Origin: Candidatus Woesearchaeota archaeon CG10_big_fil_rev_8_21_14_0_10_33_12
GTDB lineage: Archaea > Nanobdellota > Nanobdellia > Woesearchaeales > CG1-02-33-12
Length of the DNA: 56,201 nucleotides
Direction: 5' to 3'
NCBI GenBank assembly: GCA_002762865.1
Contig: PCYE01000021.1
Span: 1-56,201, forward strand
The number at the start of each line of letters is the position of its first letter. The stretch's first letter is position 1. The position numbers are program-made. Of this stretch, positions 36,001-42,000 are shown in pieces.

Positions 36001-39000
36001 TTGTTATGTAAGATAAATTTAATGGTCTTTTAAAATCCCTTCTTCCTCCAAGCTCAATGTAGGAATATATTAAAACAGGTCCTTCCATTCCTTCAGACTC
36101 CTTAATAGTCTGTTCAAGACCCTTCTCTGTATTGACCATATATATAGAAGAATACCCTTGAAGAGCTGCAACAAATGGAATTTTTGCTGTGTCCGAACAT
36201 GATCTTTCTTCCGTGCATGAAGCATATGCATTATTGTCCAATACAATATGGGTTAAATTTTTAGGGTTGTTGTAACCTATTGTAACAAGTGTACCAAAAT
36301 TTGTTAAAATACTTGCATCTCCATCTATAACAATTGTTTTTGTTTTTGGTTTAGATACAGCAAAACCCAATCCAAGTGAAGATACCAGACCAAAAGATCC
36401 AACATTATAGAATTGATTTGGACTATCATATCTTTCATACAATGAACGACTTATTAACCCTGTTGTTGAAAAGATTGCATCTTCCGAAGTAGTTGAGTTT
36501 ATAATTGAATCAAGAGCAACCTCTCGCTTCATTTTTTTTGAATATTTTGAAGTTCTGTTAACTATTTTTGGTAATATCTCATTAATAACATTTTTGCTTC
36601 CATATTCTAATTTTTTATTATGTATTTTGGGTTCTGAAATTGTTTCATTACTTTTTCCTTTATATGAACACCAACCCCGTTTTACCAAGATTGCTGCTGG
36701 TTTCTTTTTTTCATTAATAAAATTATAAGAACCTGAAACTGTTTCTTCAATATTATCTTCTTCCAATTCTTTGTAGAAAATACCCAACTGCTCTAGAACT
36801 TTTTTGGTAAGTTTACCCCCTATTAAATGCTGGGGTGCATTCTCTCCTGAACATCCTCTATATGTTACAACAAATAAGAAAGGTATCTCGCATGGAATTA
36901 ACAAAGAGCTTATTTCATTTGTAGATTTTAGCATTCCAGAGTTTTGCATATAAACAACTGGAATTTTACTTCCAAGATAAGCTCCTGCAGCAATACCTAC
37001 TGCCTCTGGTTCGCTTTGTGCAGGAATATGGATAAAATCTTTATCAATTTCAAAATTATTGATGAAATATCTCAATACTCCACAAGGAACACCTGTTGCA
37101 AAGTTTGTACCTTTTTCTTTAAGCTTATTATGAAATCTATTTGCATGAGGGTTCTGACTTTTATTAAAATCCTTAAATTTTGATTCCATTTAATTTTTTC
37201 CCCCCATATTCTGTAAAGAACAAACCACGATAATCCTGCCAGACCTTAGGTTTAAGGTTTTTGTCTTTAAAAATATCTTCAAGCATTTTTCTTGCATTTA
37301 AATAATACTCAATCCTGTTAGCTGAGAGATGCCTTAAATCAGCCTGCCCAGGAATATACTCCTGCATTGTATTAATTATAGGGAATTCTGTTAATACTGG
37401 AACATATTTTTTAATTTCATCGCTAAATATCTCTAAAGGATCTAACCCCATTATATAAAGAATTGTTGTGTTAATACCCAGGTCTTTAGCTGTATTTAAA
37501 ATTTTTCTGCTTTTATCTAAAGATATATTTTTTTCTGGTTTTAACATTTGATTTCTTCTTGTGAAACATTCAATTGTCATAGCTATTGTCGCAGAATTTA
37601 CATATTCCGCCATTTTTTTTAAAGACTTTATTGAGGTTATTTGTGAGCCCATATACTTTAATTCTCCTTTAAAATTATAATCATTTTTTAATATATCATT
37701 TAGCATTAATATATGCTCTAAAGTATCTTTTTCGTTTTCAAAACATCCTGTTACAATGCTTATTCCTTTGACATGAGATAAATCTTCCAGTTTTTCATTA
37801 GCGAGAACATAATTAATTCTCTTTCTTAACCTTTGTGGGCTAGTTAAATCATCTTCATCTCCTTTTGCAGAATTTAATTTGTATGTACCGCAGAACTTAC
37901 AACCACTACATTTTCTCCTATTATTAGAGTTAATTGTCATTTCAGTACCAATTTTATGGTTTTTTATATTTACAAATTTTCTAAAATAAGTGCTGTCGCA
38001 AGTATCATTTTCAACCAATTCTGCTTTAGCAATAGGTTTATTTTTAAACAGCAATTTTTTTCCGTTATGAATCCAACGCGAATCCTTTGTATTTGTTAAA
38101 GCAAGATAAAAATCTTCATTAATCAAATAAGGGCTTATTTTAAACCTTACCCTTTTAGAATCAAGAAAGGGATAATTAACTCCTTCAATATTAAGGGAAA
38201 TTAATAAGATATCAATTGCTGGAACATCATACTTTTTTTCAAGTTTAAAAGCATGTTCTAAAGATTCCAAAAATGCGTTTTTATTTTTCATTTTTATTGA
38301 AATATCCTTATTGAAAATTTACTATATTTTTTTATTATTAATTATTAATAAAACTTTCTAGGAAAAAATAAAAAAATTTTCGTTATTTCTGTAATATTTG
38401 CGAAATTAATAATACTAACTAATTAGAAATCAATATTTATAAACCTTTCGCTTTGTAACTACTAGTTAGTATTAAAATATTAATATTTTCTAAATCCAAA
38501 ACTATAAAAACAAATAAAGTTTCTTATACTTTATGAGAGAAATAACAGATGAAAAGCTGGATAAGTACTTTGATATAACAGGCCAGGCCTTAAACAAAGC
38601 AAAAGAAAACATAACAAAAGACAGCTCAAAGAAAGGGTCTGCAGCTGATTTCCTTGACATGGCCCAGCGTTACTACGATGATGCCAAATACTTCAAAGAA
38701 AAAGATGATTATGTAAATGCATTCGCGGCCTTAAGCTATGCCCATGGCTGGCTTGACGCAGGCGCAAGAATTAAGTTGTTTGATGTCCATGACTCTAAGT
38801 TATTTACTGTTGATGATTAATTTTTTTTCTATAATTTTTATTAAAAGGACAAGCAATAATGAAAAAATAAATGCAACCATGATAAACCTTATAAAAAATT
38901 CCCGGAAGAAAGACTGCCTATAAGTCTGAATCATCAATGAGCCTGCATTAAACTGCCAGTTGCCCTGGGGAAAAAGGATTATGTGGAATAGTTCAAAAAA

Positions 39001-42000
39001 ACTGTCAAAAAATAGTGAAGCAATTAAAGACAACAATGTAATTAAAAAGACTATCAAAGCAGATTTTTTTAAGTGCGAATAATTTATTTTTCTTTTTTTA
39101 ATTAAAACAAAAAGCCAAACCATTAAAAAAACAAAAAGAAGCTGTTCAAGTATAATCAATCTTCTAACATCAGCCATATGAGATTTCTCTTTTTCATTGA
39201 AATTTACATTTAATTCTGAACTAAAGCCAGTTATGTATCTTGTTACATTTCTGTCAATCTCTAAATGGCTTGGATTGCCTGAATATTTTCTGATAAGCGA
39301 GCTATGAAAAGATGTTGAATAAAGATAATAGTTAAAAGAGCTGAGAATAATTATAAAAGCTATTAATAGTGCAATTAAAAAATCTTTTTTTATTTTTTTA
39401 GATTTAAGCATTAAGCTCATAGCCTCCCAAGGAAACAAGATAAACAGTATTATTCAGATATTTCTGATTTTCAACTATGTGTTTTGGCGGCCACCCCCAT
39501 CTTAATGGTATCCCTATATTTTTCATTAGCTCAGTTACATTAACACCATGCGCTTCTGGTGATGAAATGATTTTTGTTAGGCCATTTTCTTCAATTGCCT
39601 TAGCCTGCTCAGCACGGTGTAATTTCCTTGCTTTAGGCTGCCAGAGCCTTGGATTATACCACTGCCTTGGGTGTTCTGACCATTCAGGATGCTTTAGTCT
39701 CATCCTTTCTGCAAATTTACCAACTGCAAAATCTGTACAAATAACATATACTCCTCTATCAAAATCAAGGACATTATTAATTAAGGGTTGGTTTGGCGGG
39801 CACCCCTCTTTTTTGTTGTAATTTGGACAACCTTTTGAGTGTTTATAGTATTTGAGTTTACAAAGTGTTTGTATCCCTTCCTTATACGGAATTATTTCTG
39901 GTTCTATTCTTTCAATCATCTTAACTGCCCTTATTTTTCATAATCTGCTTTATCAATTTTTGGATAAGTTCCAGGCAGCATAAAAACTTTTTCTGTTTTT
40001 ACTGCAAGGCCTCTCTCACCAAGCATCTCCTCAGAATCCATCTTTGCATTTCCATAGCAGATAAGCTCTCCTTTTAATGTAATTACAGCAATAACATCTT
40101 CATTAGTTATGCCTGAATCAAGCTTTGAGATTCCAGGCACATTAAGATTGGCTCCATGGCACAAGCTGTCAACAGCGCTGTCTAATACATAAATTTTCGG
40201 AAGATGCCTGACAGCATTTTCAATTGGCTGTATGCAATAACGCAGGTATTTTTCATTTCCATTTTCATAATAATAAAAAGCGTCTGTTAAATCCTGTAAA
40301 GTAACTAATGTACTTTCATCAAAAGGTCCTGCTTTTGTCCTTCTTAGCTCAGCCATATGGGCTCCGCAGCCAAGTTTTTTGCCAAGGTCATGTATAAGCT
40401 TTCTTATGTATGTTCCTGCCTCACAGCCAACCTTAAATAAGACATCCTGGCCATCAATCTCAATTACCTCAAAATAGTATATCTGCCTCTCCCTTAACCT
40501 TCTTTTAACAGCGCTTTTTAATGGCGGCATCTGCATTATCTTGCCCACAAATTCATTGCATACCTGATAAATCTCATGCTCTGGAATCTCTTTGTGTATA
40601 TGCATCAGCCCAACATATTCTTTTCCTGCCTTAAGCAGTGTCTGCACTACTCTCGTTGCCCTGCCAGTTGCGATTGGCAAAACACCTGTAACACCTGGAT
40701 CAAGAGTGCCAGAATGNNNNNNNNNNNNNNNNNNNNNNNNNNNNACTTGCTTATATCAAGGATTTTCTGGACATATGCACTAACCTGATGAGATGTAGGT
40801 CCAGAGGGCTTGTCAATGTTGACAACCCCATAGTTTATGAGTTCTTTTACAGGCCTGTTATTAGGATCACAGCCAAATTTAGATGAGCTTACAGATTTCT
40901 TTCTAATTAAAATTTTTCTCTTAATTTTTTCAAAAGGCAGTAAATCTTGTTGCATGCCTAGAAAGAGTTTCTTGTTATTTAATAAGGTTTTGCTTTAATG
41001 AAATTTATCTANNNNNNNNNNNNNNNNNNNNNNNNNNNNNNNNNNNNNNATATTCAATTACCCTGCCAATTACTTCGTATGCTTTGTTTTTGTAATAAAC
41101 AACCTGCCCCATATTATACTTTTTGTCTTTATTCTTAGGAAAAAACATAGCTTCTTCTTTTCTAATAAACTCTACTCTTCCTTCTAAATTCTCTTTTTTA
41201 GGAATATTTTTTTTCATCTAGCTTTTAGTTAGAACTCTTTTTTGATTTGGATTTTTCTTCTTTAACTGCTTTTTTATCTTCTGCTGGTTTCTTTTCTTTA
41301 TTCTTTGTTTCCTTGGATTCTTCTTTTTTTACTGCTTCTTCTTTCTTTTCAGGCTGCTTTTTATCTTGTTTTTTAGGTGTTATTTTCTTTGTTTCTTTTT
41401 TCTTTTCCTTTTTTTCTTCAACAGGCGCCCCAACAAGCTCTGCTTTAACTAAGCCATCATCATATTTCTCAACCTTTACCTTAACCTTATGAGGTGGATT
41501 TTTAATGCCATGTTCCCAAACCTTTAGGTTCAGGTATTTTCCAAGCTTAATATTATCTGATTTCATATGCTTTGCTAAGAATTCTTTTAAGGCTTTGATA
41601 GTTTTTTTTGCCCTCTTGTATTTTGGGGCTTTCTGAAACTCTTTCCTTAGGGGAATTATATATTCTCTTTCCAGTACAACCTTTGATTTTTCCTCTTTCT
41701 TTGCCATTTTTATGCCTTTGTCTTGGTTCTTCTCCAGGATCTCTTTATCTCAGTATGCCTGCCAGGATGGACTCTTCTTCCTTTTCCATAAATCTTCATA
41801 ACTGTCCAGAAAGGAGCCCATCTAGTCTGCTTGTGCAGTCTTGCAAGCCTCAGTTTCCTGCTTAAATGCTTGTATCTTGCCATTTTATTTTCTTATCATT
41901 TTGAATTTGTGTTTTTTTGGCTGTAATCTCATTAAAAGGTTTTTTAGTGCATCATCATCAACTGTTTTTATCTGGCTGGTTTGGATTGCCTGGCTTAGTA

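Follow-up and report, generated by a model that had tools for sequence, protein, structure and literature searches.

We describe here an uncultured archaeon that appears to mature its lipoproteins by a route known from bacteria. [quoted passage not shown] We consider it probable (roughly 0.6) that Lgt, Lsp, and Lit act as a bacterial pathway on the cell's own lipobox proteins, which would need phosphatidylglycerol with an sn-2 ester in the membrane, probably imported from bacteria. Lgt would move diacylglyceryl from phosphatidylglycerol onto the lipobox cysteine, Lsp would cut off the signal peptide, and Lit would transfer the acyl chain at sn-2 onto the free amine, with His146 as the base and His81 stabilizing the oxyanion, yielding lyso-form lipoproteins. 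Passages of PMC8689077 and PMC8275575 describe the Lit mechanism as needing an sn-2 ester. Because all three enzymes are present, the archaeal lipidation enzyme AliA is absent, and lipid synthesis went undetected, the membrane likely contains bacterial-type ester lipids.

Table 1. Features of the window and of the off-window lipoprotein genes (C8, C18, and C53 are other contigs of the same genome).
Feature	Position	Strand	Basis or remark
lit, lipoprotein intramolecular transacylase, 206 aa	38800..39420	-	PF07314, structure match, dN/dS
His81 codon of lit (equivalent of catalytic B. cereus His85)	39178..39180	-	alignment to 7b0o, 105/105 conserved
His146 codon of lit (equivalent of catalytic base B. 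cereus His153)	38983..38985	-	alignment to 7b0o, conservation
DUF357 gene, convergent, overlaps lit 3' end	38533..38820	+	PF04010; adjoins lit in 8/9 closest relatives; context only
DUF2284 predicted metal-binding gene, overlaps lit start	39404..39919	-	PF10050; context only
truB/Cbf5 pseudouridine synthase, upstream of lit, broken by N run	39931..40955	-	adjoins lit in 8/9 closest relatives
Periplasmic-binding-protein, lipobox VSGC, candidate Lgt-Lsp-Lit substrate	1512..2600	+	PF13407, N-terminus read
Two small genes, weaker lipobox-like N-termini (SVGC, GSGC), uncertain substrates	33552..34294	-	sequence; no Pfam match
Bacterial MEP genes ispD, ispF, ispE, ispH, polyprenyl synthase, cis-prenyltransferase	23582..29633	.	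profile matches
SLT (lytic transglycosylase-like) domain protein	19042..20310	+	PF01464 27.5 bits, over cut-off; E 9e-6
Lgt1	C18:25770-26465 (off-window)		TIGR00544 151.9 bits, cut-off 118.9
Lgt2	C8:1505-2206 (off-window)		TIGR00544 144.9 bits, cut-off 118.9
Lsp	C53:1265-1666 (off-window)		TIGR00077 117.9, cut-off 73.95

In profile searches, the lit product matched PF07314 with 65.3 bits (E 9.6e-18; curated cut-off 24) and TIGR01906 with 47.9 bits, under the cut-off of 74.8. A phmmer comparison to Bacillus cereus Lit (7b0o) was weak (E 0.015), and it aligned the HxxDV and FxxFHxxxFxxxxWxF motifs. The AlphaFold (AF2) model (pLDDT 94.4) superposed on 7b0p/7b0o with TM 0.77-0.78, all five structural matches with E<=0.001 were Lit, and the predicted fold has four membrane helices and an outer cap. 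The B. cereus enzyme (PDB 7B0O/7B0P; PF07314, formerly DUF1461; TIGR01906) has in common with it the fold, the four-helix topology, and the His dyad, Asp, Val, two Phe, and Trp; the archaeal protein, whose activity is predicted, differs in its shorter outer cap, its 19% identity, the missed TIGR01906 cut-off, and its archaeal host. By alignment, H81, H146, F150, F142, W155, and V85 appear to match the His85/His153 dyad, Phe157, Phe149, Trp162, and Val89; passages of PMC8275575 give His85 a catalytic role and His153 that of the catalytic base. Among 105 archaeal homologs, 63 of which were retrieved with a motif covering F150 and W155 and neither histidine, H81, V85, H146, and F150 are unchanged in all, D84 in 102, F142 in 101, and W155 in 103. 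Against close relatives, dN/dS was 0.12-0.57 in seven of nine pairs, with dS saturated in two, and this purifying selection, together with the residue conservation, rules out a pseudogene. The claim of a first-pass annotation that this ORF encodes an intact Lit with a conserved active site was confirmed. The length of 206 aa assumes a start at the ATG of 39420. The distance of an upstream GGAGG is 2 nt to this codon and 11 nt to a second ATG, at 39411, which, from this spacing, may be the true start.

Passages of one review limit Lit to low-GC Firmicutes, while the records that we searched also hold homologs from Chloroflexota and Actinomycetes. As only 22 of 118 branches were well supported in a Lit tree of 123 rows and bacterial sampling was biased, the tree can neither name a donor nor establish a single origin. 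A search of a 1.84-billion library returned 7650 matches, all nameless. Many Lit records are titled 'Methanosarcinales', but we rejected the presence of Lit in true methanogens and read this title as a deposit error, since the 44 checked genomes ('Methanosarcinales'-titled, Nanoarchaeota, Woesearchaeota, and unclassified) are 0.6-1.7 Mb in size and have no GGGP synthase over cut-off. The lit context is evidently resident, as its truB/Cbf5 neighbor is kept in most of the closest relatives; the DUF2284 gene is a variable insertion, adjacent to lit at 2 of 122 loci. Contamination was also ruled out: lit, lgt1, and lsp lie among archaeal genes and belong to the near-core set of the order, and the GC content of all 53 contigs is 31-36%. 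For example, lgt1 is flanked by SepF on one side and an archaeal-type TPI on the other, and lsp lies near aIF-1A, with an upstream neighbor that recurs in 22 of 26 loci.

Aligned to 6ryo, Lsp has D120 and D134, which are unchanged in 25/25 relatives and which would be the catalytic aspartate dyad of LspA enzymes. The Lgts are less canonical. Relative to the residues essential in E. coli Lgt, Lgt1 (dN/dS = 0.17 versus one same-genus genome) retains H103, R143, G154, and R239, with Y26 replaced by W and N146 by C, while Lgt2 retains Y26, R143, G154, and R239, with H103 replaced by F and N146 by D, making them N146C/E151C and H103F variants. Passages of PMC13251419 presume an Lgt paralog with N146C to be weak. 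All six essential residues (Y26, H103, R143, N146, G154, R239) are retained in the Lgts of 43/43 top-scoring relatives, a sample biased by its selection on score. As for substrates, the lipobox pattern was found in 14 of 1184 called ORFs, 13 of them convincing by eye, and its cysteine was enriched 10.8-fold versus <=3.5 for other residues; the periplasmic-binding-protein of the window falls outside these 14. The first-pass annotation was silent on this main support, namely the two Lgt copies, Lsp, and about 13 lipoboxes. Compared with the bacterial pathway (E. coli Lgt 5AZB; S. aureus LspA 6RYO), all three families are common to both, and Lgt R143/R239/G154, the Lsp aspartate dyad, and lipobox substrates are retained here, but the cell is archaeal, no phospholipid synthesis is encoded, and the Lgts are variants. 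The copper-resistance module lit2-lgt2, carried on plasmids in Listeria and Enterococcus, offers another comparison, as lgt2 sits in a redox/thioredoxin-like island on C8 and the DUF2284 metal-binding gene overlaps lit. However, lit is single-copy here, in a housekeeping context (DUF357, DUF2284, truB) unlinked to lgt2 or copper pumps. A plasmid search for Lgt relatives gave matches of just 36-41%.

According to passages of PMC12462473, AliA/AliB (arCOG02177, DUF63, PF01889) do the equivalent job in archaea, anchoring proteins at the lipobox cysteine by archaeol lipidation. We found no AliA in this genome or in any of 137 genomes of the order Woesearchaeales, with positive controls matched in three archaea, whereas Lgt was found in 128, Lsp in 127, Lit in 107, and all three in 95. 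Across a larger set, Lit occurs in 161 of 201 order genomes, and the published Castelle 2021 Table S3 gives 71% of 196; both are consistent with the 74% given earlier. Of 47 genomes from sister orders, 36 have Lgt, 25 Lit, and 4 AliA; all 25 with Lit also have Lgt, all 4 with AliA lack it, and lit lies directly beside lgt in four genomes (G300, G306, G308, G252). The lineage may have exchanged AliA for Lgt/Lsp/Lit long ago, when its lipid supply turned bacterial-type. There are also gaps: the same-family genome G010 (97%) has Lit and no Lgt match, no Lit was matched in G142 (92%), of the same genus, and 8 of 107 Lit-positive order genomes have no Lgt match. In the published table, 19% of 37 Aenigmarchaeota have Lit, yet 89% have AliA, 5% Lgt, and 0% Lsp. 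Lit alone therefore does not imply ester lipids, as had been proposed, and the argument must rest on the three-gene swap, from which that proposal gains stronger support. The further claim of a diacyl-ester membrane lipid goes beyond the chemistry of Lit, which demands an sn-2 ester only and is silent on the bulk of the membrane. We counted the Aenigmarchaeota, these gaps, and the non-canonical Lgts against our main reading.

The same observations could mean that these enzymes have been retooled to work on ether lipids, with Lgt transferring archaeol from archaetidylglycerol of an archaeal host and Lit doing another job, such as intermolecular N-acylation, hydrolysis, or binding. The low identity to characterized Lit fits this, as do the archaeal hosts that PMC11291902 reports for all cultivated DPANN and the retention of CarS in 42% of Woesearchaeota (published table), which we also counted against the main reading; CarS of A. 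fulgidus, as tested, is selective for the archaeal substrate. We nevertheless consider retooling unlikely, as the Lgts of the score-selected relatives keep every essential residue, AliA, which already handles archaeol, is gone wherever Lgt is present, Lit follows Lgt throughout the sister orders, and 11 relatives carry G3P/acyl operons.

In this 93.7% complete bin, a profile search found no GGGP synthase and no UbiA match over cut-off, tblastn found no CarS, PgsA, GpsA, PlsY, or thiolase, and the CdsA family, CDP-alcohol transferase, and acyl-CoA dehydrogenase were likewise not found. This agrees with the earlier report that GGGP synthase, UbiA, CarS, and CDP-alcohol transferase are missing, and GGGP synthase, DGGGP synthase, and CarS, the set for making archaeal ether lipids, were not found in the bin. 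The MEP genes of the window provide an isoprenoid supply whose downstream ether-lipid enzymes are absent; tblastn did not detect Dxr in the genome. A 439-aa protein matching PF01210 was rejected as GpsA, as it resembles a nucleotide-sugar dehydrogenase. No convincing GGGP synthase occurs in the 137 order genomes: 23 had matches at E<=0.001, nine nominally over cut-off, all partial and <=29.5 bits. Of two inspected, one is presumably HisA-like and the other, in G134, is a divergent GGGPS-like protein that we also weighed against the main reading. A PlsY route was set aside, with matches over cut-off in just 4 of the 137. Since lipid synthesis was undetected in this genome, ester phosphatidylglycerol is likely imported, and it may come ready-made from bacteria that serve as host or prey. 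Of the acyl-handling genes listed earlier, the FadD-like ligase, PlsC-like HX4D acyltransferase, patatin, and FabD-like families were borne out, while the PLD lipoprotein scored best to NucT nucleases and is unsupported as a lipid enzyme. The FadD- and PlsC-like enzymes might repair imported lipid.

Some relatives may build such lipid themselves. PF01553 acyltransferases occur in 72 of 137 order genomes versus 0/4 control archaea, and 11 relatives from 11 families share a conserved operon of thiolase, FabG, acyl-CoA dehydrogenase, Etf, two acyltransferases, and GpsA, from which we conclude that ester lipids could be produced within part of the order. Operon-bearing relatives have CarS (4/5 tested) and PgsA-like genes; their UbiA matches are MenA-like, DPPR-synthase-like, a prenyltransferase of uncertain type whose DGGGPS scores are weak, and one lacking any family. 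The earlier claim of lipids acquired externally suits this genome but does not extend to the entire order. By extension, this cell might itself make or rebuild ester lipid without a bacterial host, from scavenged fatty acids or lysolipids with its acyl-handling genes, or with synthesis genes missing from the bin. For this genome we find that distinctly unlikely: GpsA, CarS/CdsA, PgsA, thiolase, and acyl-CoA dehydrogenase are all absent, and their joint loss to assembly gaps is less likely because synthesis genes occupy at least two separate loci in relatives; G010 also lacks a CDP-alcohol transferase. A bolder view of the order as a whole, which we consider less likely than not, is that Woesearchaeales membranes consist of bacterial-type fatty-acyl ester lipids, which reduced members may take from bacterial hosts, while a subgroup may make phosphatidic acid through the acyl-CoA/acyltransferase/GpsA operon and convert it to phosphatidylglycerol with repurposed CarS and PgsA.

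As Lit chemistry bears on the lipoprotein anchor alone, ester lipid could also be a minor pool, or an anchor at a bacterial contact site, in a membrane whose bulk is archaeal ether lipid from elsewhere. Passages of PMC7242380 report, for a small-cell fraction with many DPANN, an FTIR component (1% of variance) that resembled branched archaeal lipid, a weak signal that we counted against the main reading, and another DPANN is reported to take up lipids selectively. This minor-pool reading seems very unlikely to us, as two separate lipid sources would be needed where the order has no ether-lipid synthesis, and the desaturase and glycolipid-synthase-like genes adjoining acyltransferases in relatives suggest bulk use.

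Import as the main reading has it resembles that inferred, in passages of PMC7242380, for CPR bacteria and cultivated DPANN with host-derived lipids, which likewise lack lipid synthesis, but here it would cross domains. A bacterial host for DPANN is called open in PMC8204110. The presence of these genes overturns statements in passages of PMC13251419 (RefSeq-based) that archaea lack Lgt and of PMC12462473 that they have no Lgt or Lsp homologs, and it possibly answers how archaea with lipoboxes and without AliA/AliB lipidate their proteins, a question that passages of the latter leave open. The supplement of Castelle 2021 already lists Lgt/Lsp/Lit gene counts, uninterpreted, and papers of 2025-2026 describe archaea as without Lgt; our literature search, with bioRxiv supplements outside its scope, found no paper on a diacylglyceryl transferase in Woesearchaeota or on this pathway in DPANN. 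The case for a large archaeal order, as yet uncultured, that subsists on bacterial-type lipids or produces them is chemical as well as ecological, with a bearing on Woesearchaeales hosts, the reading of lipid biomarkers, and archaeal machinery in an ester membrane, and each step can be tested with recombinant enzymes, culture of the organism being unneeded. The ancestor of eukaryotes is thought to have crossed the lipid divide between archaea and bacteria. If our main reading is true, a tiny uncultured DPANN archaeon has breached it, and if the order-wide view is true, a natural archaeal lineage has crossed it. As an indirect hint of contact with bacteria, the genome encodes two SLT domains, one in the window and a second, stronger match at C28:31777.

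The product of the lit gene scored 65.3 bits against the Pfam Lit profile (PF07314; cut-off 24) and 47.9 bits against TIGR01906, which is under the cut-off of 74.8. Its top PDB sequence match was B. cereus Lit, a weak match (E 0.015) in which the motifs HxxDV and FxxFHxxxFxxxxWxF are aligned, and an AlphaFold model (pLDDT 94.4, from a 23-row alignment) gave a TM of 0.77-0.78 to 7b0p and 7b0o. Activity of the B. cereus enzyme requires His85, His153, and Phe157 (PMC8275575, in part), and the equivalent H81, H146, and F150 are conserved in 105/105 archaeal homologues. The dN/dS was 0.12-0.57 for seven of the nine closest relatives (dS was saturated in the other two), and eight of these nine have DUF357 and truB on either side of lit. 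These results bear out the first-pass annotation, which had called Lit intact, and the gene is resident and under selection. Lit here is a new member of a known family, and the archaeon carries the bacterial pathway; the Lit tree is too weak for naming a donor. The upstream truB/Cbf5 is broken into two ORFs by an N run; this is probably an assembly gap, as relatives match without a break over the tested part.

Features and loci discussed in the text (C, contigs of the genome under study, G000; L, fetched regions; other G numbers, genomes of relatives)
Feature	Location	Strand	Remark
lit	window 38800-39420	minus	open frame, 206 aa
Lgt1	C18:25770-26465		E 3e-68
Lgt2	C8:1505-2206		E 6e-53
Lsp	C53:1265-1666		E 3e-35
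Second-lgt island	L131 (G000:C8:1-6718)
Gene immediately upstream of lsp	L003:1717-2175	minus	uncharacterised
SLT-like domain protein	window 19042-20310	plus	adjoins WbqC, PIG-L deacetylase, and GT2 genes (16161-19085)
MEP genes ispD, ispF, ispE, ispH; polyprenyl synthase; cis-prenyltransferase	window 23582-29633
Radical SAM, phosphonopyruvate-decarboxylase-like, and HAD hydrolase genes in series, then methyltransferase	window 35158-38291	minus
truB/Cbf5	window 39931-40955	minus
MoxR ATPase, DUF58, vWA, DUF7502, DUF7408 cluster	window 44200-51467	minus
Acyltransferase-acyltransferase-GpsA	L246, L249-L252, L255, L257-L261		G103, G135, G015, G119, G023, G049, G038, G111, G009, G075, G050
CarS clusters	L119:2-2638 (G134), L115, L118, L247, L248, L253
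GGGP-synthase-family-like protein	L089:1447-2151 (G134)		full-length, divergent

The substrate of Lit is the product of two earlier enzymes (PMC8689077, in part), so the presence of Lgt and Lsp in this genome lends support that the first-pass annotation had left unmentioned. Both Lgt copies and Lsp are above their TIGR cut-offs; the neighbours of Lgt1 on its two sides are SepF and an archaeal-type triose-phosphate isomerase, and aIF-1A is two genes away from Lsp. A lipobox pattern matched 14 of the 1184 called ORFs, 13 of them convincing by eye, with a cysteine enrichment at the lipobox position of 10.8 vs at most 3.5 for any other residue. Both copies depart from the canonical residues: in Lgt1, Y26 is replaced by W and N146 by C, and in Lgt2, H103 by F and N146 by D; 43/43 top-scoring relatives, a set picked by score, have the canonical residues. 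Passages of PMC13251419 describe N146C and H103F as natural bacterial Lgt variants, with one such paralogue presumed to be of low activity. Despite its non-canonical residues, Lgt1 remains under purifying selection (dN/dS 0.17). The island of the second lgt (H103F) also carries peroxiredoxin-like, glutaredoxin-like, ICMT-family, and DUF411 lipoprotein genes and what we take to be a CcdA-like gene. The gene upstream of lsp recurs in 22/26 lsp loci and is without a Pfam match.

The archaeal lipidation enzyme AliA (labelled DUF63 after supplements of PMC12462473) was not found in this genome, nor in any of 137 genomes of the order (about one per family), among which Lgt was found in 128, Lsp in 127 (each 99/105 among high-quality genomes), Lit in 107, and all three in 95. 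Lit was present in 161/201 genomes of a wider order set. Among 47 high-quality genomes from other orders of the same class, 36 carried Lgt; the 25 with Lit all had Lgt as well, and the four with AliA were all Lgt-negative; Lsp was likewise not found in five Lgt-negative genomes examined. Because the surveyed genomes are related rather than independent, these tallies, which take in the unpublished-flagged genomes G112, G121, G132, and G183 (none the sole basis for any claim), are patterns and not statistics. The gene lgt is immediately adjacent to lit in four relatives (G300, G306, G308, and G252). Genes, motifs, lipobox substrates, and distribution of the pathway are all read directly from the genomes. 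Many public records titled 'Methanosarcinales archaeon' (L154-L228) are small genomes with a Woesearchaeota-like Lit in which GGGP synthase was not found; they are probably mislabelled and could distort taxon counts.

Passages of PMC13251419 state that Lgt is absent from archaea, and those of PMC12462473 identify no Lgt or Lsp homologues, take genomes with lipoproteins but without AliA/B as pointing to undiscovered pathways, and tabulate Woesearchaeota as having lipoproteins and no AliA. Counts deposited in 2021 for 196 Woesearchaeota (PMC8204110, Table S3) give Lgt 83%, Lsp 83%, DUF1461 (Lit) 71%, and DUF63 0%, and the word 'lipoprotein' does not occur in that paper's main text. A supplement of PMC8421398 lists lgt, in a paper with a passage saying that membrane lipids probably cannot be made. 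Our literature search, with subscription papers and bioRxiv supplements outside its scope, found no paper interpreting these counts; a preprint of 2026 that deals with complete Nanobdellota genomes uses neither 'lipoprotein' nor 'lipid' (for parts of further comparison literature, see 10.64898/2026.03.08.710431, PMC13473441, and PMC12352652).

We infer, with a probability of roughly 0.6, that this lineage exchanged AliA for Lgt, Lsp, and Lit, which would be active in making lyso-form lipoproteins from sn-2-ester phosphatidylglycerol held in the membrane and, in this genome, obtained ready-made from bacteria. The first-pass annotation had read ester lipids from an intact Lit in a genome without archaeal lipid synthesis; that reading is partly supported, and the exchange of pathways is firmer ground for it than Lit alone. 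Lit chemistry demands an sn-2 ester only and leaves bulk membrane composition unfixed. A whole archaeal order with ester membranes is the boldest reading, and we regard it as possible but less likely than not. In this 93.7% complete bin we reproduced the reported absence of GGGP synthase, UbiA (over cut-off), CarS, and CDP-alcohol transferase, and CdsA, PlsY, GpsA, thiolase, and acyl-CoA dehydrogenase were not found either. An HX4D acyltransferase, a FadD-like ligase, a patatin, and a FabD-like protein stand as acyl-handling genes, but a PLD lipoprotein previously counted with them scores highest against NucT nucleases. Dxr was not found in this genome by tblastn, and the MEP genes and prenyltransferases of the window would supply glycosyl carriers, as there is no ether-forming enzyme after them. 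The two SLT domains of this genome are consistent with bacterial-wall contact, as proposed for the group (PMC8204110 and PMC9723730, in part).

The earlier view that lipids are taken from outside fits this genome but not the order as its sole source. PF01553 acyltransferases occur in 72/137 order genomes vs 0/4 control archaea, and CDP-alcohol transferases in 81/137. Among 22 regions from 19 genomes, selected because their acyltransferase or PgsA matches were high-scoring or in tandem, two acyltransferases followed by GpsA were found in 11 genomes (11 families), with archaeal ribosomal protein uS2 adjoining in 10/11; coming from a chosen sample, this number is a minimum. Ahead of these genes most loci carry thiolase, FabG, acyl-CoA dehydrogenase, and Etf in part or in full, and the conserved operon reads [thiolase-FabG-acyl-CoA dehydrogenase-EtfBA]-acyltransferase-acyltransferase-GpsA. 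With this operon an archaeon may make phosphatidic acid of the bacterial type de novo; it lends independent support to ester lipids within the order and shows that import is not the sole possible source. Its acyl-CoA genes could also run in the degradation direction. Passages of PMC8204110, PMC10936187, and PMC6431249 had already remarked on GpsA, PlsC, and genes for fatty acids in DPANN; we found no description of the operon in them. A DesA-like desaturase occurs in G015 and a glycolipid-synthase-like gene in G038.

Several observations count against the inferred exchange of AliA and use of ester lipids. Lit can exist without its partners, since Table S3 of PMC8204110 gives 37 Aenigmarchaeota Lit 19%, AliA 89%, Lgt 5%, and Lsp 0%. 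The same table records CarS in 42% of Woesearchaeota, and A. fulgidus CarS, as assayed, preferred the archaeal substrate (PMC9385802, in part). A minor FTIR component resembling archaeal lipid was reported from a DPANN-rich small-cell fraction (PMC7242380, in part). The non-canonical Lgts here, G010 without an Lgt match, and G142 without a Lit match also weigh on this side.

GGGP synthase gave partial matches only (at most 29.5 bits) in the 137 order genomes. We found CarS in 4/5 operon-bearing relatives examined. In genomes with no convincing GGGP synthase, archaeal CarS lies clustered with a PgsA of bacterial type, a PHP phosphatase, a PS decarboxylase, or acyltransferases, and may there act as a CDP-diacylglycerol synthase. 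The GGGP-synthase-family-like protein of G134 (TIGR01768, 38 bits vs 113) was the only such case among two hits inspected.

Elsewhere in the window, the series that begins with a radical SAM gene is possibly a phosphonate or sulfonate pathway (its phosphonopyruvate-decarboxylase-like gene scored 262 bits vs 312), and a MoxR ATPase gene is clustered with DUF58 and vWA genes.
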